64,000 bases of DNA from a candidate division WOR-3 bacterium. Lineage in GTDB: Bacteria; Hydrothermota; Tepidihabitantia; SM23-42; JAOAFX01. Below the pieces are notes generated by a model. That model made no database searches. It had not been told where the DNA came from and worked only from the letters and a program-made list of their open reading frames with translations. This document shows, piece after piece, positions 19,671 to 31,412 of this stretch (the stretch's first letter is position 1; every line of letters begins with the position of its first letter). The stretch is from NCBI GenBank assembly GCA_037444665.1, contig JBBILZ010000001.1:25434-89433 (forward strand), written 5' to 3'. The position numbers and the translations under genes are program-made.

Positions 19671-20975
19671 TTATGATTTTTTATAACAGAGCCTTGCCCA
19701 GTCAAATGCCTCAACAACATATTTGATAAATCTTCTCAACTCATTCTGATGTTTTCTGAATGCGGTATTAAGGATATTCTCACACAATTTTTGTTCTATT
19801 TCAAAATCTACATATGCAGTTTTGTATATACACAATAGATTATCAAAGATTATTTCAAAATCACCCCTGCTGAATTTTCTTAACAACACTTTATTTTTAA
19901 TAAATCTCGTGGTCCAATCATCTTCCGCGGGGGTTGTGGCAATTACCAGTAGAATATTTGTTTCTTTATAGGCATAGGGCGTGGGACGAACACGATTATG
20001 TAGCAGACGGTCATCAATCTTTTTCATATCTTTGTCATTCAAGGCAATACGTACCAACCCTTCAAGAAATGCCATACCCCTTTGTTGGAAATGATACTCC
20101 CAGATATGGTTCAACTCCTCAAATTCATCAATGATAATTACCAGACCACTGAGTCCAATCTGTTTTGTCAGATAACTGATACCACTGAGAATATAATTAT
20201 AAAAATCTGCAGCCGTAGAAAAATCATACAATGCCGGGATCTGCTGTCCACCCTTTATCCGATAAGGTGCTTCATGGTCTGTTGCATATTCTTTTGTAGA
20301 TTCGCCTTCTATCCATTGATAAAAGACTTCACTATATTTATCATTATCATCTTGCATATCTTTAATTTTTTTGAGGACCGGGGTTAAAAAACAATGGTCA
20401 GGCATCGGTATTTCAACTGATTGCCTCAATAAGTCACGGAATCCATATTCACAATTATCTTTGATAAATCTTAAACTATACACAAGTTCGTGATATATTT
20501 TTTTCGGCCGATACGGTGGGGTTTCCTGAATATGGAGCACACAATAGGTTGTAGCCACACCCTGTCTTAATGATAGATGCCGGAGGTATTCAGCAAGATG
20601 GGTCTTTCCTGAGCCATATTCACCCTCAATTAAAAAGACACCACCGCTCCCCTTTTTTAAATTATCCAGTGATTTCTGAAACAGGTCTATTTCATATGCC
20701 CGACCAAAGGTAAAGTGTTCAATACCCTGATATGGAACAACGCCCATTCTGAGCGCCTCAATTATCCTTCGGGACGAAATTCTGTCTAATTCTATTTCTT
20801 CAACATTCAGTTTTTTTAGCCATTTTGTCGGAAGCCAGAGGACCAATCCACTACGGAATTGGACGCGGGACTCAATATCGTTCCATCTTGTTTCAAGGAC
20901 CACGCCTTCACCAAAAATATTATGGACAACTATGTTAAAATTCTTCTTGTTCAACTTCTTCTTTTTCTTTATCAA
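19671..20975 (-). CDS. P-loop NTPase of unassigned family (paralog A)
   Basis: 434 aa. Walker A GEYGSGKTHL near residue 120 and Walker B LVIIIDEFEEL near residue 285. The ~160-aa spacing is atypical for AAA+. Its N-terminus overlaps the 3' end of paralog B by 41 nt. Confidence 0.6.
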   Translation of the reverse strand: MIKKKKKLNKKNFNIVVHNIFGEGVVLETRWNDIESRVQFRSGLVLWLPTKWLKKLNVEEIELDRISSRRIIEALRMGVVPYQGIEHFTFGRAYEIDLFQKSLDNLKKGSGGVFLIEGEYGSGKTHLAEYLRHLSLRQGVATTYCVLHIQETPPYRPKKIYHELVYSLRFIKDNCEYGFRDLLRQSVEIPMPDHCFLTPVLKKIKDMQDDNDKYSEVFYQWIEGESTKEYATDHEAPYRIKGGQQIPALYDFSTAADFYNYILSGISYLTKQIGLSGLVIIIDEFEELNHIWEYHFQQRGMAFLEGLVRIALNDKDMKKIDDRLLHNRVRPTPYAYKETNILLVIATTPAEDDWTTRFIKNKVLLRKFSRGDFEIIFDNLLCIYKTAYVDFEIEQKLCENILNTAFRKHQNELRRFIKYVVEAFDWARLCYKKS

Positions 20976-22191
20976 GGAGCTCTGCTACACGCGCCTTGAA
21001 TATTGTCATTGCTGTATTTTTGTCAATCGGTTGATTGTTCTCTCTTATCCTCTGAAATGCCTCAATTATTCCCACAACAAAAGTGCGGCGATAAAATATA
21101 TCAAGTATCTGTTTTTCAAGAACCGCTGCAATCATATTTTTTAGGGAGATTGAAAGGGTATTTGAATCAAATTCAAAATTATATGCAGATTCAAATACTT
21201 TTGCCAGCCTCTCCCCTAATTTTTGTAAAAATTCTTCTGGATTCATCTCTATCTTTTCCAGGTCAATTTTAACTCCGGTAGGATTTATCTTTGTAAAACT
21301 TGAGCGCAACCTCTGTTTCAATGCCTCATATACTCCACCTGTCCCTTCAAGCAAAAGATGTTCATCAGGGACCGCATAAAAGAATATAGCACCGGGCAAT
21401 CGGGAATTTCCACACTCGTCAATAATCTGGCGGAGATTGTCCAGGGCACGGCGTTTATCCTTTGTTGAAGAGATGCTCATACCCCTCTCTGCCTCATCAA
21501 ATAAGAAAATAATACCATTATAACCGATTATATTCACAAATTGGATAAAACTCCTTAGCATCCTGAAGGCAGTAGAGCGGTCTATCCTTTCTGCAATACG
21601 ATGTTGCAGTTTCAATTCTCTTACTATATCCTCACCCTTTAACCACTGGACTAAAGAATAAAATCTTTCCTCATCATCAGCCGCAAGGCTCTTGAGTGCT
21701 TCTTTAATACAATTTGTATAACTTGTGCTTTCAAGATTTTTTATGAGTGAAGCAAAATCTCTATCATCGCGAACACGATAATACCATTTACGAAGCAAAG
21801 CCTCTATACCTAATTCCCAGGGGCTCAGCATCTCCTGTTCTGTCAAAGGTGTGCTGATATTTGAAACAATCTTTTTATAGACCAATTCCAGCCTATCAAA
21901 TGGACATTCTGTAGCGCTCAATGATACATAACTTGTAATATAATTGTATTTCCAGGCAAGGTTTCTGATTGAATATAAAAAATGTGTCTTACCTCCACCA
22001 TAATTGCCCGTAATCAATTTAAATGTAGAGATGCTCTGCCTGCCCGGAAAATTAAAATAGTCATTTTCTAACACATTCAAATAAGGTTCAAGCCCGACTG
22101 TAAAATATTCAATGCCAAATTCAGGTGGCGTTCCAAAACCACCGAGTTTATCTATTATTCTTCTTGCAATCACTTGATTTATCCTGCTCAT
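20935..22191 (-). CDS. P-loop NTPase of unassigned family (paralog B)
   Basis: 418 aa. Walker A GNYGGGKTHF near residue 70 and Walker B IIFLFDEAERG near residue 230. Clear paralogy to A around both motifs. Confidence 0.6.
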   Translation of the reverse strand: MSRINQVIARRIIDKLGGFGTPPEFGIEYFTVGLEPYLNVLENDYFNFPGRQSISTFKLITGNYGGGKTHFLYSIRNLAWKYNYITSYVSLSATECPFDRLELVYKKIVSNISTPLTEQEMLSPWELGIEALLRKWYYRVRDDRDFASLIKNLESTSYTNCIKEALKSLAADDEERFYSLVQWLKGEDIVRELKLQHRIAERIDRSTAFRMLRSFIQFVNIIGYNGIIFLFDEAERGMSISSTKDKRRALDNLRQIIDECGNSRLPGAIFFYAVPDEHLLLEGTGGVYEALKQRLRSSFTKINPTGVKIDLEKIEMNPEEFLQKLGERLAKVFESAYNFEFDSNTLSISLKNMIAAVLEKQILDIFYRRTFVVGIIEAFQRIRENNQPIDKNTAMTIFKARVAELLDKEKEEVEQEEF

Positions 22192-22205
22192 ATCCTCTCA
22201 ACTCC

Positions 22206-22226
22206 TTACTACTTACTACCTACTAT
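22206..22226. repeat. TAC-tract repeat fragment (ttactacttactacctactat)
   Basis: Same motif as in the A, B and 57.66 kb copies. Overlaps the stop of the 22216..23097 gene and supplies the AAGGAG ribosome-binding site of NTPase B on the minus strand. Confidence 0.5.
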
Positions 22227-23097
22227 CCTTCTCTATCGCCATATATCCATAATAAGTCCCTTCACCTTCTTCATCATCAGGTATCCAGATTGCCTGTTTT
22301 TTATCTGTGGTTGCATCAAATGTTGCAACATATAGATGAATAGATTTCTGAGTGAATTCAGATTTTTTAAAAAGATACAAAAGATAAGCAAGTTCTACCC
22401 TTGAAAATTCACGATAGTTCTCTTTCCTGGGGTCAATAAAAAACTGCGGTGGTTGTTGTAAGAACACATACTCATCCAATACATCTACGAGAAGCACCTT
22501 TTCTCCATACGGTCGATTCAACAGGTTCAACCTTCTTTTGTATGCACTTTCAAGGTCAAGATAAAATTCCTTTGGGTCAAATTTTTTCTTTTTCAATTCT
22601 TCGTCAAATTTTTTTATAGTCTGATAGACTGTTTCCGGTTCAAGAGGGATTTTGGACTTTAATTTCTCAATCTGTGGTCCAAAATACAGGGCTGCCTCGC
22701 CAAATTCAAAGTTTAAAACAAGGGTATAAAAACCGACTCTTAATATTGGATACTGGCCCTTTATTATTCTGTTATCCTGTTGGAAAAGTGTTTTGAGTTT
22801 TTCACCGAATGCAAAGCGAAATTCCTCTTTTGCCTTTTCAACCTCTTTCTTTTCCTGATTGAGCCAGTCAATTAACTGGTTTTTCAAATCAAATTCTGCA
22901 AGGCTATTCGCAATTTTTAAGAGTTCAGAAACTCTTTTCTCCATAATATAGGCATTATCTACTGGACTCTCTTTTAATTTCGCATAGTCGTTTATCAATT
23001 TTGTTATTTTACCTGCTGCCTTTATCAATCCCTTGAATCCTTCTACAATCTCTTTCATTAGCAGCAATATAATAACCAAAAATATACCCGATGTCAA
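22216..23097 (-). CDS. hypothetical protein, first gene of the NTPase A/B operon
   Basis: 293 aa with no motif I recognise. A short hydrophobic N-terminus is followed by K/E-rich helical regions. Co-directional and close to NTPases B and A. Confidence 0.5.
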   Translation of the reverse strand: MTSGIFLVIILLLMKEIVEGFKGLIKAAGKITKLINDYAKLKESPVDNAYIMEKRVSELLKIANSLAEFDLKNQLIDWLNQEKKEVEKAKEEFRFAFGEKLKTLFQQDNRIIKGQYPILRVGFYTLVLNFEFGEAALYFGPQIEKLKSKIPLEPETVYQTIKKFDEELKKKKFDPKEFYLDLESAYKRRLNLLNRPYGEKVLLVDVLDEYVFLQQPPQFFIDPRKENYREFSRVELAYLLYLFKKSEFTQKSIHLYVATFDATTDKKQAIWIPDDEEGEGTYYGYMAIEKDSR

Positions 23098-23342
23098 TAA
23101 GTTTTTGGGAAAACAATCCTACTTTATCAAAGTTTTTTCAATCATTGACTTATTAAAATTTCTGGTTAAAATGGATTGCAAGGTTATTATGCAAACAAGC
23201 GAAAAGAGAACGAATAATCTATTCAACAGCAAGTTTTTTACCAAGGCAGATTGTAAAATCCAGAATCTCAGAAGAGAAAATTAAACCTTTTGAGACTATC
23301 AATGCAACACTCCTTTTTGCAGATATATCTGGATTCACGGCA

Positions 23343-25898
23343 ATGAGTGAAAAACTTGCCCGCTTAGGCAAAGAAGGGGCAGAAGAAGTAAACAAGATAA
23401 TCAACTCCTTTTTTGCTCCACTCATCAGTGTCGTGTATAAGTGGGATGGAGATATTTATCGGTTTGGTGGCGATGCTTTCTTAGCATTCTTCCCTGAAAT
23501 GCCGGCAAAAGAGTTATCAAGCAAAAGGGCACTGAAAGCGGGTATTGAGATTTCAAAATTTGTTAAAGCCCATGAAATAACAAAGACCAAAGTAGGCTCA
23601 TTCAAAATCAAAATCCATATCGGGTTGACAAAAGGCAAGATCTATTTTCAGGACCTGAAAAATAATTTCTTTCTTGGTGGCAGGATAGTAAATGATTTAA
23701 TGAAAATGATTGACCTTGCTGGTCCTGGTCAGATTGTTGTCAGCTCTGATGTTAAAAAAGAACTACCTGAAGTAAGTTTTACACCAAAAGAGGATACCTG
23801 GCAATATCTCGGAATGAAAATGAAACCGGCTAAAACACAGACAGAAATTAGTAAATTCTCCCCTAAAATATCTGATGATAAATTTACTACACTAAAAAAT
23901 TATATTCCTGATTGGTTACTTAAAAGGATTGAATTGAAACCACATTTTGACCACAAGGATGGAGAACATAGAAAGATTGCGGTCATCTTTTTGCATTTTG
24001 CCGGTATCCCCTATGATAAAAATCCTAAACAGGCGAGCGCAATGCTGGAGAGATTGTATAAAATTGTGAGCCAGTCAGTAGAAAAATACGACGGCTGGAT
24101 AAATGCAATTGATATCTATAAAGACAGCGAAAGATTTCTTGTGGTCTTTGGTTTTCCCAAAATTTATGAAGATGATGAAAAGAGGGCTGTTCTTTTTGCC
24201 TATGAAATTCTGAACCATCCTGAATTAAAACGGTTGCATTTGAGGGCAGGGATAAACTCGGGTTCAGTCTTTGCCGCACCCGTAGGCAGTGAATTGAGGC
24301 GTGAATATGCAACATTGGGTGATGCAGTAAATCTTGCAGCAAGGCTTGCTGCCAAAGCACAGAACCAAACAATTGTAGCAAGCGAACCCATATTTAATAA
24401 AACATTTGGACTCTTTGATTATGAATTTTTAGGTGAACAGGAATTTAAAGGGAAAAAGAAAAAGATTAAGACATATAAGATAATCAGAAAAAAACAGATT
24501 GAAAAGAAGGCACTGACAAGATGGCTCTCTGAAAGTGAAAAGATTGTTGGTAGAGATAAAGAAATTAAAAAGATGCAAAACCTTGTCAGTTTATGTTCTA
24601 CGGGAAAGGGACAGATTCTCGGAATTACTGGTGAGCCCGGGGTCGGAAAATCAAGACTGGTTCAGGAACTTATTAAATTTACAGAAAAGGCAGGATACTA
24701 TATTGTTAAAGGTGATTGCATTTCCTATGGCAGTGCCTTTTCATACCATCCCTGGGTAGAAATTTTAGAACAATTTTTTGATATTTCATCCAGCGATTCC
24801 TTAAAAATACGCACTAATAAAATAAAAGAGAAGTGCATCAGTGTTGATAAAAAACTTACTCAGTGGCTGCCAGTAATTGGCGAGGTTATGGGTGTTCCAT
24901 TCTTAGAAACATCACTCACAAAATACTTAGATGCCAAGATAAAAAAACAGCGTGTTTTTGATATTATCTTTGACTTCTTGAAATTTGTTGCCCGGACCAA
25001 ACCAGTAAATGTAATTATTGAAGACCTGCACTGGGCTGATACTGCTTCAATGGAACTTGTGAATTATATTGGTAGAAACATTGAGGATAAACAGATACTT
25101 TTAACACTGGTCTATCGTCCATTAAAGAAAAAAGAAGAATTTATGGAGAAGGGCTGGACAACTGAATTGAGTTTAAAAGAACTTTCAAAAGAAGAGAGTA
25201 TTGAGCTCGTTCAACTTTTACTCAATATCAAAAATATCCCTGATGACCTGAAAAAAATTATTATTGAAAAATCACAGGGGAACCCTTTTTATATTGAAGA
25301 ACTCGTAAAATCACTGATTGAGCAGGGCTATGTGATTGAAGAAAAAGGAACATGGAAATTTAAGGGTGATATAAAGAAACTTCAATTACCTGATACACTT
25401 GAGGCGGTTATCTTATCAAGGATTGACCGACTTGACCTGGAAGACCGTGATGTATTGCAGACCGCTTCAGTCCTGGGCAGGGAGTTTGATGAATTCTTGC
25501 TTGAACAAATATTCCCTGCGCCACAACTATTAAAAAAATCCCTTCATAATCTTGAGCGCCTTGATTTGATAAAACAGGAAGACAGCAAAGGAAAAAGGCA
25601 TTACTTTTTCAAACATATCCTCACCCAGGAGGTTGCATATGGTACCCTGTCTTTTGCCCGCAAACAAGAACTCCATCGCCAGACCGGCAGATTTATAGAG
25701 ACTGAACTTAAAGACCGAAAAGAAGAATTTCTGGGTCTGCTCTCTTACCACTTCTATGCGGGTGGAGATTATGATAAATCTCTGCTCTATTCAGTTGAAG
25801 CAGGTGAAAAGGCAAAAAAGGTCTATGCCAATGAAGAGGCAATAGAATTCTTCACCCGGGCAATTGATTCATACGAAAGATTGGAAGGAAAGATATAG
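23343..25898 (+). CDS. tandem class III nucleotidyl cyclase domains, STAND (AAA_16-type) ATPase and the start of a TPR region
   Basis: CHD1 carries the metal-binding Asp motifs (LLFADISGFT, GDAFLAFF), while CHD2 carries the N/R motifs (GDAVNLAARL). Walker A GITGEPGVGKSRL, then GNPFYIEEL and TASVLGREF, typical of MalT/AfsR-like ATPases. The conserved LLFADISGFT motif is encoded from about 23289, upstream of the first in-frame ATG/GTG/TTG at 23343, so the true 5' end is unresolved. Confidence 0.7.
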   Translation: MSEKLARLGKEGAEEVNKIINSFFAPLISVVYKWDGDIYRFGGDAFLAFFPEMPAKELSSKRALKAGIEISKFVKAHEITKTKVGSFKIKIHIGLTKGKIYFQDLKNNFFLGGRIVNDLMKMIDLAGPGQIVVSSDVKKELPEVSFTPKEDTWQYLGMKMKPAKTQTEISKFSPKISDDKFTTLKNYIPDWLLKRIELKPHFDHKDGEHRKIAVIFLHFAGIPYDKNPKQASAMLERLYKIVSQSVEKYDGWINAIDIYKDSERFLVVFGFPKIYEDDEKRAVLFAYEILNHPELKRLHLRAGINSGSVFAAPVGSELRREYATLGDAVNLAARLAAKAQNQTIVASEPIFNKTFGLFDYEFLGEQEFKGKKKKIKTYKIIRKKQIEKKALTRWLSESEKIVGRDKEIKKMQNLVSLCSTGKGQILGITGEPGVGKSRLVQELIKFTEKAGYYIVKGDCISYGSAFSYHPWVEILEQFFDISSSDSLKIRTNKIKEKCISVDKKLTQWLPVIGEVMGVPFLETSLTKYLDAKIKKQRVFDIIFDFLKFVARTKPVNVIIEDLHWADTASMELVNYIGRNIEDKQILLTLVYRPLKKKEEFMEKGWTTELSLKELSKEESIELVQLLLNIKNIPDDLKKIIIEKSQGNPFYIEELVKSLIEQGYVIEEKGTWKFKGDIKKLQLPDTLEAVILSRIDRLDLEDRDVLQTASVLGREFDEFLLEQIFPAPQLLKKSLHNLERLDLIKQEDSKGKRHYFFKHILTQEVAYGTLSFARKQELHRQTGRFIETELKDRKEEFLGLLSYHFYAGGDYDKSLLYSVEAGEKAKKVYANEEAIEFFTRAIDSYERLEGKI

Positions 25899-27027
25899 AT
25901 TGCGGACACAAGATTATCTGACAGAAGATAAATGTAGTTCAGTTAGACAAAGTGAACAAGTGAAAAGTATTCGCCAAAATCTATTAATAAAAGCCCTCAG
26001 AGGCAGAGCAGAGATTAATTATTTAACAGGAAAAATTGACGAAGGCATAAGAGATTATACACAGATACTCCAAGAATATGGTGAGAAGAATAGAGACGGA
26101 AATTTTTTTACAATGTTGGATACGATGATTCATATTGCTAATCTTCTGGCGGTTGGAAAGAGTGATTTTTCAGGGGCACAAACACTGATAAAAAAAGCAT
26201 TTAAAAAATTGGGCAAAAAAATGAATACCCGTACCTATGCCCGTGGTCTAAATTGTCTGGGTATAATTTTTAGGCGCCAAAGTAAATATGTTCAAGCACT
26301 AAGTCATTTCAGAAAAGCCTTACGCATATATCAGACTTTAAAAGAAAAAGAAGGTATCGCCGGTGTTTACTCTAACATTGCGCTTACCTATTTTAACAAA
26401 GGTAATCTTGATATTGCACTGAAATATTATAAAAAATGCTTCATTCTATGCCGAGATTCAAATGACCTGCCGACCATAGGAACAACCCTGGGCAATATCG
26501 GCCTTGTTTATCAGGAAAAGCGTCAATATGATAATGCTTTAAAGTACTATAAAGATTATTATGCACTGTCTCTAAAATCAGGCCATAAATTGGGTGTCAG
26601 TATTGCTTTAAGAGACATTGGCGCAATTTATGAAAAAAAATGTTTTTATGATAGGGCATTAGAATATTACAAGAAATCTCTTACTATAGCCGAAGAGATA
26701 AATGCACAAAGAGAAATCGGCATTGTTTCCGGACTCATTGGCTTCACATATAAAGAGCAGGGAGACTTTACCAATGCACTAAAATATTTGACCAGGGCGC
26801 TATCTATATTTGAAAAAATCTCTGATAAAAAACGGTTGGGTTTTGCTTTTATGCATTTAGGGATGGTCTATAGCGAACTCAAAAAATTTGAGGTAGCAAA
26901 ACAGTATCTCAATCAGGCTCAAAAAATTTTTGAAGATATCGGTGATAAAATATCTCTGTCCCGTGTTTTTACCTTGCTCTCAAAATTGGAGACCACACAG
27001 GGGAACGATAGTTACAATGAAAGATAA
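25864..27027 (+). CDS. TPR-repeat protein, paralog 1 (5' overlaps the cyclase ORF in another frame, 3' cut by an in-frame TAA)
   Basis: 387 aa of 34-residue TPR units (e.g. GNIGLVYQEKRQYDNALKYYK). The homology to paralogs 2 and 3 begins near SIRQNLLIKALRGRAE, with a possible GTG start around 25953. A TAA at 27025-27027 is followed in frame by the conserved C-terminal module. Confidence 0.55.
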   Translation: MIHTKDWKERYRLRTQDYLTEDKCSSVRQSEQVKSIRQNLLIKALRGRAEINYLTGKIDEGIRDYTQILQEYGEKNRDGNFFTMLDTMIHIANLLAVGKSDFSGAQTLIKKAFKKLGKKMNTRTYARGLNCLGIIFRRQSKYVQALSHFRKALRIYQTLKEKEGIAGVYSNIALTYFNKGNLDIALKYYKKCFILCRDSNDLPTIGTTLGNIGLVYQEKRQYDNALKYYKDYYALSLKSGHKLGVSIALRDIGAIYEKKCFYDRALEYYKKSLTIAEEINAQREIGIVSGLIGFTYKEQGDFTNALKYLTRALSIFEKISDKKRLGFAFMHLGMVYSELKKFEVAKQYLNQAQKIFEDIGDKISLSRVFTLLSKLETTQGNDSYNER

Positions 27028-27045
27028 ATATTTTTCTCAACAATC

Positions 27046-27258
27046 TTGAAGACTCGTGTGAGACTTGAATATGCAAAATCTCTTTACGAACTTGGGAAAG
27101 TATACCTAACTTGTCGTGAAACGTGGAACGTGAAAGGTAAAACGGCGAAAAAGGCGTTACAATATTTAAAAGAAGCAGAAAAGATTTTCAAAAAAGCAGG
27201 TGCTGAATTGTGGTTGAAGAAAACCAGCGACTTAATAAATCAATTACCCAATTATTAA
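27046..27258 (+). other. orphaned C-terminal module of TPR paralog 1, same frame and separated by a single in-frame stop
   Basis: The 70-aa ORF VRLEYAKSLYELGKVYL...AGAELWLKK matches the C-terminus of paralog 3 (LELAKSLYELGKVYL...AGAELWLKK). Its frame is identical to 25864..27027. Confidence 0.5.
27073..27221 (+). repeat. ~149-bp direct repeat, copy 1 (3' module of the TPR paralogs), about 85-90% identical to 29999..30148
   Basis: Aligned by eye: gcaaaatctctttacgaacttgggaaagtata...gcaggtgctgaattgtggtt. Confidence 0.7.
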
Positions 27259-28722
27259 ATGAAGGTGGATGCAAGAAGAGACCTTTTATTACGTGCATTA
27301 GAAGGAAAGGGTGCGGTTTTAATGTTGATTGGAAAATTTGATGCAGCTGCGAGCCTTTATCATCAATTGGCAAATAAGGGGCAGGATAATCCACTGATCG
27401 TAGCAAGGGCAGAAAGATCAATTGCTGATGTTTACCTGAAACAGGGCAAATACGATGAAGCTCTAAAAATTCTTGAAGGCAAAAAAGAAAATATCATCGG
27501 TGATTCAGAAAGTGGAGCAATTGAAAAGGCGTTAATTCATATATCTAAAGGTGGGGTTTACAGGTATAAAGGAGAATTAAGAAAAGCAACTAAAGAAATA
27601 AACAATGGATTAAAAATCTTATCTTTTATTCACAAAGAAACTAAGTTAAAAAAGAGATTTATTATCAAAAAAGCGCAGGCAACCGCCTTCAATAACCTGG
27701 CTTCAATTTCTCTGCTTAAAGGTAATTATAAAAAAGCAATAAAATTGTATAACAAATCATTGAAAATAATAAAAGATTTAAACGAAAAACAGGCAATTGG
27801 AACAACAAACGGTAATCTGGGCCTAATTTTTTTGGATAAAGGCGAATATTCAAAGGCAATTAATCTATTTATGAACCATATAAAAATATCAAAAATGATT
27901 GGTGATAAACGAGGCCTTAGTTTGGCAATTGGGAATTTAGGTTTGGTCTATGAAAATATGGGCAATTATAATAAGGCGATTGGGTTATTTACCAGATATC
28001 TTAAAATCGCTCAAGAGTTAGGAGATGAGCGTGGGATAGGGACTGCCTGTGGTAATTTAGGGCTGGCGTATAGAGACAAACAACAATATTCTGAAGCAAT
28101 TAAATTTCTCTTAAAAGATTTGGTCATTTCCGAAAAAATAGGCGACAGATACGGTTCCGGTATCTCTTGCTTAAATCTGGCTTTTGCTTATCTGGAAAAA
28201 GATAGTTTTAATGATGCAAAAAAATATTTATTCAGATCATTTAAAATATTTAAGAATATGGGTGATACATTTGATATGATTTATGTTAATCTGGGTTTAG
28301 CACTGTTAGGTTTATTGAAAATTAAAATGGGAACTGCGTCGCGACTTAGTATTGGGAAAACATTAAAATTTATTAAAAACGCACTAAAAACTGCAAAGGA
28401 GATGAATTCTAAAACAGCAATAGCAGATTGTTATTTTATATTTGCAAAAGCATATGTAGCCATTTCCAACTTCAAAAATGCTCAAATATATTTTAAAAAA
28501 GCCATCAAATATTTCAATAATCTGAAGTCAAAAAGGATGCTCGCTGATTCATACTTTGAATACGCAAAAATGCTAAAAAACTGGGAATCACCGAGACTTG
28601 AAGGTACCAGGAAATTTGAACAAAATTTAAAAAGGGCATTAAAGATATATAATGAATTAAGCTTGCCACAAAAAATCAAAGAAGTAAAAAAAGTAATGGA
28701 ACAAAACTTTGCTAATGATTAA
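27259..28722 (+). CDS. TPR-repeat protein, paralog 2
   Basis: 487 aa. N-terminus RRDLLLRALEGKGAVLMLIGKFDAA is homologous to paralogs 1 and 3, and the body is many TPR units. The TAAATG junction with the preceding ORF suggests coupling. Confidence 0.7.
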   Translation: MKVDARRDLLLRALEGKGAVLMLIGKFDAAASLYHQLANKGQDNPLIVARAERSIADVYLKQGKYDEALKILEGKKENIIGDSESGAIEKALIHISKGGVYRYKGELRKATKEINNGLKILSFIHKETKLKKRFIIKKAQATAFNNLASISLLKGNYKKAIKLYNKSLKIIKDLNEKQAIGTTNGNLGLIFLDKGEYSKAINLFMNHIKISKMIGDKRGLSLAIGNLGLVYENMGNYNKAIGLFTRYLKIAQELGDERGIGTACGNLGLAYRDKQQYSEAIKFLLKDLVISEKIGDRYGSGISCLNLAFAYLEKDSFNDAKKYLFRSFKIFKNMGDTFDMIYVNLGLALLGLLKIKMGTASRLSIGKTLKFIKNALKTAKEMNSKTAIADCYFIFAKAYVAISNFKNAQIYFKKAIKYFNNLKSKRMLADSYFEYAKMLKNWESPRLEGTRKFEQNLKRALKIYNELSLPQKIKEVKKVMEQNFAND

Positions 28723-30169
28723 AACCGGAAATTTAAGAAAACAGTTGCTAATCGACGCATTAGAAGGAAGAGCCAATGTATATAGACTTATAGGCGAATA
28801 CGATGAAGCAATACAAGACTATCAGAAGGCTATATTCTGGTGTAAAAAGGGAACAAAACCAGACTCCCTTTTAATAGCAAATCTAATAATTCACCTTGCT
28901 GACATCTTTCGAGAAGGCAAAAATGATTATGATAAGTCAGCGATGCTTATTAAAAAATTATTTAACAGGATGAGTAAAAAAAATAAAAATGCGCTTTATC
29001 CACTCGGTTTAAATATCCTTGGTATTATTCTCACCCACAGAGGAAGGTATAAACAAGCACTGGAATATCATAAAAAGGCACTCAGTATTAATAAAAAATT
29101 AAAGGACAAAACAGAAACAGGGAAAACATATTTGGTTATTGGAGACATTTATTATTATACAGGTGACTTCACAAATGCATTGAAATACTACAAAAAATCG
29201 GCTACAATATTAAAAACAACAGGCAATAAAACCAATCTTGATATAGCTTATAATAATATCGGTTCTATTTATTATGACCAGGGTAAATCTTTTATGGCGT
29301 TAAAATATTACAAAAGATCTCTTAACATATCTGAAAAGATAGAATCCAAACTTGATATTGGCGTTACTTGTGGCAATATTGGAACAGTATATCATAGTAT
29401 AGGCAACCTTGATATTGCCTTGAAATATTATGAGAAATCTATTAACATATTAAAGCAGATTGATTATAAAATAGGAATTACCACAGGTTACAACAACCTT
29501 GGTGCTGCATATTACGATAAAGGTAGATTCCATACCGCATTGAGATACTATAGAAAATCTTTAAGTACATTTCAGGAGATAGGTTATTATTTGGGGATTG
29601 GACTCGTTTATTTGAAGATGGGTCAGGCTTATACAGGATTAAGAAATTTCAGCCGAGCGGATAAATATCTTAAATTAGCAGAAAAAATATTTATGGGGAA
29701 TCCCAATAAAAAAATTCTATCAAAAATTTATATAGGTTTCTCGGAATTATACTACGGAAAAAAAGATTACGAAGGTGCATTTAAACATGCAAACAAGGCA
29801 CTCTCTTTAACAAGAGAAACAAAAATAATAGAACAGAAGATTTCGGCATTAAGACTAATGGGGAAGGCAATAAAGTGCCTGACGCATAATACAGGGCACA
29901 CGATGCAGGATAAAGCAATACCATCCACTAAAAAAGCGATTTCTTATCTTGAAGAATCAATTGCCCTTGCGCGGAGATACAATATGAAACTGGAACTTGC
30001 AAAATCTCTTTACGAACTTGGGAAAGTATATTTACCTTCTCGTGAAACGGAAAATGCGAAAGGCGAAACGGAGAAAAAGGCGTTACGATATTTAAAAGAA
30101 GCAGCAGAAATTTTCAAAAAAGCAGGTGCTGAATTGTGGTTAAAGAAAGTAAAAAACTTAATCGCTTAA
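28709..30169 (+). CDS. TPR-repeat protein, paralog 3
   Basis: 486 aa. N-terminus RKQLLIDALEGRANVYRLIGEYDEA and a C-terminal module shared with the paralog-1 tail. Overlaps the end of paralog 2. Confidence 0.7.
   Translation: MLMIKTGNLRKQLLIDALEGRANVYRLIGEYDEAIQDYQKAIFWCKKGTKPDSLLIANLIIHLADIFREGKNDYDKSAMLIKKLFNRMSKKNKNALYPLGLNILGIILTHRGRYKQALEYHKKALSINKKLKDKTETGKTYLVIGDIYYYTGDFTNALKYYKKSATILKTTGNKTNLDIAYNNIGSIYYDQGKSFMALKYYKRSLNISEKIESKLDIGVTCGNIGTVYHSIGNLDIALKYYEKSINILKQIDYKIGITTGYNNLGAAYYDKGRFHTALRYYRKSLSTFQEIGYYLGIGLVYLKMGQAYTGLRNFSRADKYLKLAEKIFMGNPNKKILSKIYIGFSELYYGKKDYEGAFKHANKALSLTRETKIIEQKISALRLMGKAIKCLTHNTGHTMQDKAIPSTKKAISYLEESIALARRYNMKLELAKSLYELGKVYLPSRETENAKGETEKKALRYLKEAAEIFKKAGAELWLKKVKNLIA
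29999..30148 (+). repeat. ~149-bp direct repeat, copy 2
   Basis: See 27073..27221. Confidence 0.7.
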
Positions 30170-30263
30170 TTATTATCAGAAACCCAGTAATAAATAAACT
30201 AAAATATATAAAAAGTAAAATGATATTCATACAGAATAGAGTTAAGCTTAATTCTTTACATTA

Positions 30264-30291
30264 TTGACATAGCGAATTTAATCTATATAAT
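30264..30291 (+). promoter_or_regulatory. sigma70-type promoter TTGACA-N16-TATAAT for the FBP aldolase/phosphatase gene
   Basis: Perfect hexamers at 30264-30269 and 30286-30291. AAGGAGG ribosome-binding site at about 30314, ATG at 30327. Confidence 0.6.
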
Positions 30292-30326: not shown

Positions 30327-31412
30327 ATGGCGATTACTTTGAGCATTATTAAGGCAGATATTGGTGGGTATGTGGGGCACTCAAGCATGCATCCCAATAT
30401 AATTGCCCGTGCAATTCAATTGCTTGATGCCCAGAAAAATAAGGGCACAATTGTTGACTTCCATGTTTCGCATTGTGGCGATGACCTGGAACTCATTATG
30501 AGCCATCGGCTCGGCAATGATTCTAATGAGATTCATAAACTTGCCTGGGACATATTTGTTGAATGCACAAATGTCGCAAAAGAATTAAAACTTTATGGTG
30601 CGGGTCAGGACCTTCTTTCTGATGCCTTCTCTGGTAATGTCAAAGGTATGGGACCAGGCTGTGCTGAAATGACCTTTGAAGAACGTAAAAGTGAACCGGT
30701 TATTGTCTTTGCCGCAGATAAAACCTCTCCTGGTGCCTGGAACTATCCTTTATTCAAAATGTTTGCTGACCCATTCAATACAATTGGACTGGTCATTGAC
30801 CCGAGCATGCACGATGGATTTGTTTTTGAAGTGCACGATGTTTTCCATGACAAGAATGCCAAAATGAACACACCCGAAGATATGTATGACCTTTTGTGTC
30901 TCATTGGTGCATCTGAACATTATATTATAAAGAATGTCTATAAAAAAGATGGCACCATTGCTGCGACAACTTCAACCCAGAAAGTAAATTTACTTGCAGG
31001 AAGATATGTAGGTAAAGATGACCCGGTAATGATTGTGCGCTGTCAGAGTGGTCTACCTGCAGTTGGTGAGGTACTTGAGCCATTCTCATTCCCTTATATG
31101 GTAACAGGCTGGATGCGTGGCTCACACTGGGGACCATTTATGCCAGTTTCAGTGGAACAAGCAAACCCCACAAGGTTTGACGGGCCACCAAGGCTAATTG
31201 CACTGGGCTTTCAAATATCAAATGGAATGCTTGTTGGACCAAGGGATATGTTTGCTGACCCGAGTTATGACCATACCAGGCAGAAGGCAAATGAGATTGC
31301 TGATTATATCAGAAGGCATGGTCCATTTGAACCACAAAGGTTACCTCTTACGGAAATGGAATATACTACACTTCCTCAGGTGCTCAATAAATTAAAAGAC
31401 CGGTTTAAATAG
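30327..31412 (+). CDS. fbp: fructose-1,6-bisphosphate aldolase/phosphatase (bifunctional, archaeal-type class V FBPase)
   Basis: 361 aa. N-terminus ITLSIIKADIGGYVGHS is the hallmark of the FBP aldolase/phosphatase family. Confidence 0.85.
   Translation: MAITLSIIKADIGGYVGHSSMHPNIIARAIQLLDAQKNKGTIVDFHVSHCGDDLELIMSHRLGNDSNEIHKLAWDIFVECTNVAKELKLYGAGQDLLSDAFSGNVKGMGPGCAEMTFEERKSEPVIVFAADKTSPGAWNYPLFKMFADPFNTIGLVIDPSMHDGFVFEVHDVFHDKNAKMNTPEDMYDLLCLIGASEHYIIKNVYKKDGTIAATTSTQKVNLLAGRYVGKDDPVMIVRCQSGLPAVGEVLEPFSFPYMVTGWMRGSHWGPFMPVSVEQANPTRFDGPPRLIALGFQISNGMLVGPRDMFADPSYDHTRQKANEIADYIRRHGPFEPQRLPLTEMEYTTLPQVLNKLKDRFK

Follow-up and report, generated by a model that had tools for sequence, protein, structure and literature searches.

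We examined a 64,000-nucleotide (nt) stretch of a candidate division WOR-3 bacterium (contig JBBILZ010000001.1 of assembly GCA_037444665.1, positions 25,434 to 89,433 of the forward strand; hereafter the window, numbered from its first letter), in which a nucleotide cyclase gene is followed by a run of genes for tetratricopeptide repeat (TPR) proteins. The cyclase shares one open reading frame (ORF) with a P-loop NTPase of the STAND type (signal transduction ATPases with numerous domains), and behind it stand TPR1, a 70-residue ORF, TPR2 and TPR3. An initial annotation had proposed that one long cyclase-STAND-TPR gene was broken by a frameshift, or else that there were two genes, and that TPR1 had been cut from its own C-terminus by a single TAA. 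Its coordinates were borne out: the longest cyclase ORF in the window runs from 23343 to 25898 (851 residues, with a TAG stop at 25896-25898), the TPR1 frame is stop-free from 25846, and the TAA at 27025-27027 is followed by 76 further open codons. For comparison we used three other strains that are about 95% identical to the window at the nucleotide level (L002, Logan SRR12999147; L003, Logan SRR24079483; L105, NCBI GCA_037443805.1). The features of the locus are the following.

23189..25898, plus strand: cyclase-STAND gene, from Pfam, orthologue and PDB matches
23200..23210 (near 23205), plus strand: 1-nt insertion relative to sister strains, from a three-way DNA alignment with L003 and L105
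25883..25889, plus strand: Shine-Dalgarno (SD)-like GGAAGGA, read from the sequence, 10 nt before the TPR1 start codon
25900..27027, plus strand: TPR1, short-form (T1-type) stand-alone TPR protein of 375 residues, TPR_12 match with E 5e-56
27028..27258, plus strand: probable vestige of a lost long-form TPR paralogue, from homology to the long-form C-terminal module; holds repeat copy A
27059-27246, plus strand: repeat copy A, within the 70-residue vestige
27259..28722, plus strand: TPR2, intact long-form (T2-type) protein of 487 residues, TPR_12/TPR_1 Pfam matches
28715..30169 (ORF 28709/28715), plus strand: TPR3, intact long-form (T3-type) protein of 484 residues, TPR_12/TPR_1 Pfam matches
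29985..30172, plus strand: repeat copy B, at the 3' end of TPR3

In the product of the cyclase gene, two class III cyclase-homology domains stand in tandem ahead of an AAA_16 P-loop NTPase and a helical arm, with a single TPR-like motif at the end. Pfam searches with the window ORF returned Guanylate_cyc (E 1e-16) in one stretch, against two stretches in intact orthologues, AAA_16 (E 2e-22) and weak matches to NB-ARC and ATPase_2, and the P-loop motif GEPGxGKSR was invariant across an alignment of cyclase-NTPase relatives (alignment A1). The best PDB match of the tandem cyclase domains (residues 13-387 of P0001, the 902-residue orthologue; window 23343-24500) was the C1-C2 core of ADCY10, with E 5e-27. 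Domain 1 of the orthologues bears the motifs FADISGFT and GGDAF, and domain 2 has no metal-binding motif, the orthologues carrying FLHF[AST]GIPYD there. Class III cyclases can be built as C1/C2 pseudo-heterodimers, and the absence of a metal-binding motif from domain 2 suggests such a pseudo-heterodimer within one chain, which would have one active site.

We compared the cyclase/TPR boundary of the window with those of conspecific contigs and of 20 related metagenome loci, the latter found by a metagenome scan with the conserved C-terminal 119 residues. Full-length orthologues comprise 902-908 residues; the four closest (78-96% identity) end at the identical residue, …AIDSYE[KR]LEGKI, and a fifth ends three residues later (QKS). 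Among the orthologues compared, this shared end reaches down to about 73% identity. Throughout the 20 related loci the cyclase-NTPase ORF stops 10-25 codons past an invariant EAIEFFTRAI motif. The stop codon differs among about 20 relatives (TAG, TAA or TGA), and the next TPR gene may lie in any frame, overlapping the cyclase gene, abutting it (TAG-ATG in L004), continuing in the same frame or standing up to about 130 nt away, in some relatives behind a spacer with stops in all frames. A TPR region in the same polypeptide as the cyclase-NTPase was not found here, the ORF stopping after one TPR-like motif. Because the end residue is shared while stop codons, frames and spacers vary, both a recent frameshift and programmed recoding are excluded as the origin of this boundary, which leaves the two-gene alternative of the initial annotation in place of the broken single gene. 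The cyclase stop at 25896-25898 is therefore a conserved gene end and no lesion.

Searches for homologues of the cyclase-NTPase placed this boundary in a wider context. About 100 relatives were recovered, the named ones mostly from candidate division WOR-3, and most were proteins of about 900 residues with cyclase and AAA_16 domains and without TPRs. Fusion to TPRs was seen in 9 of 105 matches at 38% identity or more and, among the matches listed, in 15 of 15 at 33-35% identity (1341-1470 residues), and the fused homologues align across the whole cyclase-NTPase. A scan of genome contigs with alignment A1 returned, among the matches listed, mostly distant fused cyclase-AAA-TPR genes and three loci above 40% identity. 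In fused relatives the position of the split is occupied by a lysine-rich linker (P0035: …LEGKIQKKIIGEYKKSKKIFEKKGKEQERLELFIRALQGRA…), which indicated that the split lies between repeats, and the existence of fused homologues argues that the separate parts form one functional unit.

TPR1 starts at a TTG codon (25900) 2 nt past the cyclase stop. An SD-like motif such as the one preceding it was found upstream of 16 of the 38 long ORFs in the window. The stop-free stretch from 25846 to 25899 (NSSPGQLIHTKDWKERY) is not TPR-like, contrary to the earlier suggestion that it continues the TPR register, and a 375-residue gene with the same start is called at this position in L003 and L105. The TAA that ends TPR1 is also present in L002, L003 and L105, and the ratio of nonsynonymous to synonymous substitution rates (dN/dS) of the gene was 0.14 against L003 and 0.05 against L002, compared with 0.034 for the downstream fructose-1,6-bisphosphatase (FBPase) gene; for the cyclase-NTPase gene it was 0.088 against L003. 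The T1-type proteins of L089 and L091, which are 44% identical to TPR1 in loci whose cyclase is 73% identical, end within about 9 residues of the TPR1 stop, and the L091 gene is followed by an ORF for a different protein. Two fused proteins whose TPR part is T1-type (P0062 and P0070) have their C-termini at this point too. Given the shared TAA, the purifying selection and the coincident ends of T1-type homologues, TPR1 is an intact, naturally short gene and the TAA at 27025-27027 its native stop, so that the claimed loss of a C-terminus falls away.

The open frame beyond that TAA has a different origin. The 70-residue ORF spans 27046-27258, its frame ends at TAA 27256-27258, and a Pfam search with it gave no match. 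A conserved module of the form …[FL]ELAKxxYExGK…AxxYLxxAxxIFxKxGAxxWLKKxxxL… closes most of the clade's long-form TPR genes, and the piece keeps the last ~60 codons of such a gene, corresponding to this module (LEYAKSLYELGK…IFKKAGAELWLKK…), and nothing else. Its tail, TSDLINQLPNY (…LWLKKTSDLINQLPNY), is closer to L084_3 and L092_1 than to TPR3. Because the piece consists of the long-form module alone and its tail does not have its nearest match in TPR3, it is probably what remains of the 3' end of another long-form gene, formerly located between TPR1 and TPR2, and not the C-terminus of TPR1. The dN/dS of the remnant, about 0.3-0.4 from fewer than 10 substitutions, suggests loss of constraint. 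The decay in the locus thus lies in this stump, which the initial annotation had assigned to TPR1, and in a frameshift at the 5' end of the cyclase gene, described below, which it had not noticed; the cyclase stop and the TPR1 TAA do not belong to it. A decaying TPR gene was also seen elsewhere: at L086 13305-14806 the counterpart of L084_4 lies scattered over four or more frame pieces, and the second TPR ORF of L086 lacks the usual N-terminal residues.

Repeat copies A and B form a direct repeat of 188 nt that is 84% identical, far beyond chance, and the 149-nt interval noticed in the initial annotation is 88.6% identical. In L002, L003 and L105 the order is TPR1, a single chimeric stump and the FBPase gene, with TPR2 and the body of TPR3 absent. 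The stump of L002 and L003 resembles copy A on its left and copy B on its right, with the crossover inside a 32-nt stretch that is identical in both copies (27075-27106 / 30001-30032). In that of L105 the A-like tract reaches much further and gives way to B-like sequence through a stretch of alternating A-type and B-type sites. Direct repeats thus flank the variable segment, and other strains carry recombinant junctions between them, which agrees with the recombining ends proposed earlier. The two different mosaics point to recurrent recombination or gene conversion between the copies, and the L105 mosaic implies an ancestor of L105 that had both. We infer that homologous recombination across the repeat removed TPR2 and TPR3 in the sister strains, at least twice or after gene conversion. 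Deletion in those strains is favoured over insertion in this one because of the ancestor of L105 with both copies and because T2-type and T3-type genes follow the cyclase in the same order in L084 and L086. The number of TPR genes accordingly differs among strains, since the 188-bp repeat allows two of them to be deleted. The Logan contig L001, an independent assembly, reproduces TPR2-TPR3 at 100% identity over window positions 27186-30027, starting and ending inside the repeat copies as expected of a de Bruijn graph.

Comparison of array length across relatives gave a range from 0 (L096, L098 and L100) to 6 genes (L084), the loci of L093 and L094 being fused, and a TPR gene lies directly downstream of the cyclase-NTPase gene in at least 17 of 22 related loci. 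The longest array, L084 10473-19809 (JGI contig Ga0207433_10004240), holds six consecutive stand-alone TPR genes after the cyclase-NTPase gene and reaches to about 140 nt from the end of the fetched stretch.

The paralogues themselves are divergent. Protein identity was 40% between TPR1 and TPR3, 27% between TPR1 and TPR2 and 26% between TPR2 and TPR3, and the gene bodies are 45-51% identical in DNA, no 150-nt window exceeding 59%. An all-against-all comparison of the TPR proteins resolved at least four paralogue types. The nearest relatives of TPR1 are L089_1 and L091_1 (44-45% identity), those of TPR2 are L086_1 and L084_1 (34%) and those of TPR3 are L084_3 and L101_2 (41%), each window gene being closer to a gene of another species than to its neighbours, by a small margin for TPR3 (41% against 40% to TPR1). 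The order of a T2-type followed by a T3-type gene is common to the window, L084 and L086. Orthologous TPR proteins are 34-45% identical, as against 73-76% for the cyclase-NTPase in the same loci. In a homologue search with TPR3 the best full-length matches reached 37-38% and the best partial match 49% over 63% of the query; close relatives of TPR3 were not found by this search, which is weak evidence, as TPR proteins swamped the word index and the query itself was not returned. The N- and C-terminal 30 residues were among the best-conserved parts of the TPR proteins. The paralogues are thus old types with long-term birth and death and not the product of a recent duplication burst, and the rapid recent diversification first proposed gives way to three ancient types whose nearest relatives are in other species. 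They are widely conserved as separate intact genes, an outcome that the initial annotation had itself said would count against it.

Within the array, the ATG of TPR2 directly abuts the TAA of the stump (TAAATG, 27256-27261) and the ATG of TPR3 overlaps the TPR2 stop by 8 nt (ATGATTAA, 28715-28722), both junctions being coupling-like. No SD-like motif was found upstream of TPR2 or TPR3, and the junctions between the genes show no conspicuous promoter or terminator signal. The gene call of TPR3 in L001 begins at the position that corresponds to window 28715. Exact-sequence look-ups gave matches for TPR2, the FBPase and the 270-residue form of the upstream protein, and none for the 851-residue ORF, TPR3 read from a TTG start, TPR1 read from a methionine start or a 280-residue upstream ORF.

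A single genuine frameshift was found in the locus, the 1-nt insertion near 23205, where the window reads GCGAAAAGAGAACG against GCGAAA[A/G]-AGAAAG in L003 and L105 and thus has one extra base. It places the ATG at 23189 out of frame with the body of the cyclase gene and costs the ORF the first 51 cyclase residues including FADISGFT, the first metal-binding motif of domain 1, a truncation that, by analogy with C1/C2 pseudo-heterodimers, should abolish catalysis. The deposited NCBI protein P0122 (851 residues) appeared identical to the truncated window ORF in a by-eye comparison, and the Logan contig L104, from the same strain and 99.99% identical, ends at 23178, short of the insertion site. 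Because the rest of the gene has a dN/dS of 0.088, the insertion must have arisen very recently, unless it reflects an error of assembly.

Taken together, these results probably describe an operon with native stops, of an ordinary and conserved type, that belongs to a WOR-3-centred clade, in which an ADCY10-like cyclase-STAND gene is accompanied by a variable array of 0-6 TPR genes that turns over through repeats and would supply sensors in trans; proteins of this kind usually have the TPR region fused to them. In the mechanism we propose, each TPR protein would dock non-covalently on the cyclase-NTPase through the conserved N-terminal repeat LLIxALxGRAxxYxLxGxYDxAI, which would continue the TPR begun at the C-terminus of the NTPase, and the conserved C-terminal module may add to docking. 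As an exchangeable subunit, either sensing a ligand or autoinhibitory, the TPR protein would then control both the oligomerisation that depends on NTP and the synthesis of cyclic nucleoside monophosphate (cNMP). This gating is modelled on MalT; in MalT and Avs it is performed by fused TPR or SUPR sensors. A further extension, which we put forward tentatively and hold to be rather unlikely, is that of 'one engine, many sensors', whereby one cyclase-NTPase would be served in trans by strain-variable TPR sensors docking through their terminal modules, with the 3' module doubling as a recombination handle.

Several observations weigh against the operon with trans-acting sensors. L096, L098 and L100 have no downstream TPR gene, which means that adjacency is not obligatory. 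Conservation at the ends of the TPR proteins, by which they may bind the cyclase-NTPase, is 0.54-0.62 and just slightly above that of internal TPR consensus positions (up to 0.59). The 5' frameshift of the cyclase gene may leave the module non-functional in this strain unless it is an assembly error. The direction of the strain polymorphism is likewise a matter of interpretation, and insertion in this strain could also explain it, and the sequencing run behind L001 may have supplied the source assembly as well.

Other explanations were weighed against the same evidence. Fused homologues of 1230-1470 residues, the frame change at the junction and the open frame beyond the TAA would each suit a single cyclase-STAND-TPR gene disrupted only recently at two points, through a frameshift at 25846-25898 and through a nonsense mutation at 27025, but such an account can hardly be maintained when orthologues at 78-96% identity stop at the identical residue, the split is kept in about 20 relatives and the same TAA occurs in three other strains. 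Relaxed selection was not seen (dN/dS 0.09 for the cyclase gene and 0.05-0.14 for TPR1), T1-type homologues end alike with unrelated genes downstream, and no close orthologue was found to read through as one ORF. Programmed recoding, in which a +1 frameshift at the cyclase stop or read-through or reassignment of TAA would yield fusions, could draw on the 53-nt overlap of the TPR1 frame with the cyclase ORF, on the common frame of TPR1, the 70-residue piece and TPR2, which are parted only by TAA codons, and on L099, L004 and L005, whose TPR ORF lies in frame directly past the stop. We consider it very improbable, as the relatives share no conserved slippery site or frame relationship, 100-130 nt spacers with stops in all frames intervene in L084, L085 and L092, TPR1 has its own SD-like motif and start, and all three stop codons end conserved genes, the FBPase matching its Pfam model end to end. 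Reassignment of the stop codon at the TAAs was also considered and rejected. For the 70-residue ORF, maintenance as a small gene, either as a free C-terminal docking module or as an upstream ORF coupled to TPR2, would fit its open frame in all four strains, the 68-residue gene called in L002 and L105, the abutting ATG of TPR2 without an SD-like motif and the status of the module as the most conserved part of long-form TPR proteins. This remains doubtful in view of L002, L003 and L105, which keep the piece but have no TPR2 to couple, and in view of the missing SD-like motif, a start codon that varies by strain (TTG, GTG), a dN/dS above that of TPR1, though from fewer than 10 substitutions, and a chimeric copy whose stop codon is mutated to GAA with an altered tail.

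An assembly chimera, with TPR2-TPR3 derived from elsewhere or from another population and joined via the 188-bp repeat, is improbable. It would account for the same-strain Logan contigs that break in the repeat copies (L001) and before the cyclase start (L104, at 23178) and for the three other strains without TPR2-TPR3, but L001 contains the right part of copy A, TPR2, TPR3 and the left part of copy B at 100% identity, and the window has A-specific and B-specific variants in the expected order. The A/B mosaic of L105, moreover, implies an ancestor with both copies at this very locus, and in L084 and L086, too, the cyclase is followed by a T2-type and then by a T3-type gene. An antiphage function, whether Avs-like STAND or Pycsar-like, with the TPR array as an arms-race sensor repertoire, is unlikely on present evidence, and a role in defence is possible but unsupported. 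The low identity of TPR orthologues relative to the cyclase-NTPase, the copy-number turnover and decayed copies of the arrays, the adjoining BrxD-like ATPases and the match of the cyclase domains to PycC models all point towards it, but PADLOC matches were generic only (cyclase, TPR) and no gene for a cNMP-activated effector was found, the downstream neighbours being TPR proteins and FBPase and the upstream ones BrxD-like ATPases. Those ATPases are kept within the species and not in L084-L101, the surroundings are housekeeping genes in conserved synteny (an AsnS/AspS-type tRNA synthetase, UvrC, FBPase), and the paralogues are old and not newly diversified.

The operon with native stops can also be set beside known systems. 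Like ADCY10, whose C1-C2 core is matched by its tandem cyclase domains, the locus continues through a P-loop STAND NTPase to TPRs, and full-length ADCY10 does so in a single protein. The same holds for the fused cyclase-STAND(AAA_16)-TPR proteins P0026, P0035, P0062 and P0070 and for the Chloroflexota-type proteins of 1340-1470 residues. Unlike ADCY10 and these fused proteins, the window and most of the WOR-3-centred clade have their TPRs in 0-6 separate downstream genes of several paralogue types. With MalT-type STAND proteins the locus shares a layout in which a P-loop NTPase is followed by a helical arm and then by a TPR-like sensor, and TPR1-3 scored 38-57 bits with the TPR_MalT model, sub-threshold to marginal given its cut-off of 45; here, however, the effector is a nucleotide cyclase and not a helix-turn-helix domain, and the sensor would act in trans and in several copies. 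With Avs and other bacterial NLR-like antiviral STAND NTPases the locus shares the pairing of such an NTPase with TPR sensors that evolve rapidly, and its TPR genes turn over in copy number; it gave no match to a specific PADLOC model, and it lacks a cell-killing effector as well as a mobile or defence-island setting conserved across species. Orphan C-terminal cassettes downstream of the polymorphic-toxin genes rhs and cdiA offer a conceptual analogue, being tandem, partly vestigial 3' modules that share a stretch for recombination; the locus differs from them in having no toxin/immunity pair, in carrying the repeat at the 3' end and not at the switching junction of the main gene, and in that TPR2 and TPR3 are whole genes, each with a start of its own. 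PycC of Pycsar shares the class III cyclase fold (PycC models matched with E 4.5e-20 to 1e-9), but the locus has two tandem cyclase domains and a STAND NTPase and no adjacent gene for a cNMP-sensing effector.

The neighbouring genes are the following, a divergent trio on the minus strand (19671-23097) lying upstream of the cyclase gene.

22216-23028/23097, minus strand: unknown protein of 270/293 residues
20935-22191, minus strand: BrxC_BrxD-family (BrxD/SngB-like) ATPase
19671-20975, minus strand: second BrxC_BrxD-family (BrxD/SngB-like) ATPase
30327-31412: class V (archaeal-type) fructose-1,6-bisphosphatase gene, with a strong AAGGAGG ribosome-binding site

The synteny of the trio with the cyclase gene is kept in the conspecific L003, L104 and L105 and not in L084-L101, and a conserved link to the BrxD-like neighbours was rejected on the grounds that it is lost outside the species. 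A perfect sigma-70 consensus (TTGACA, 16 nt, TATAAT) lies at 30264-30291, 36 nt before the FBPase gene. In two relatives a second, distant STAND-type gene (28-29% identical) stands a few kb upstream of the cyclase-NTPase gene (L086 2624-4540 and L100 1522-4704).

Literature searches turned up no account of split cyclase-STAND genes accompanied by arrays of TPR genes, and a 2026 survey of STAND proteins (PMC13581612) leaves cyclases unmentioned. The components are all of known families, and what is new is the split cyclase-STAND gene with its variable TPR array. Since every component is known and the function is only conjectured from the sequence, we rate the interest of the locus as moderate to low. 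Because both apparent lesions are normal gene boundaries, the locus is unsuited to annotation as a pseudogene, and the actual defect in this assembly is the 1-nt indel at the 5' end of the cyclase gene.

The locus is a naturally occurring case in which the cyclase-STAND-TPR architecture known from mammalian soluble adenylyl cyclase is divided between separate genes. To our knowledge, the role of the NTPase-TPR region of ADCY10 is poorly understood, and separate TPR paralogues, in numbers from 0 to 6, allow one to ask whether the TPR region is a detachable sensor or regulatory subunit. The strain polymorphism also provides a clear, small case of repeat-mediated copy-number change in an uncultivated phylum. 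If the notion of 'one engine, many sensors' were true, the system would be the bacterial counterpart of sensor/helper NLR networks, its output being a second messenger.

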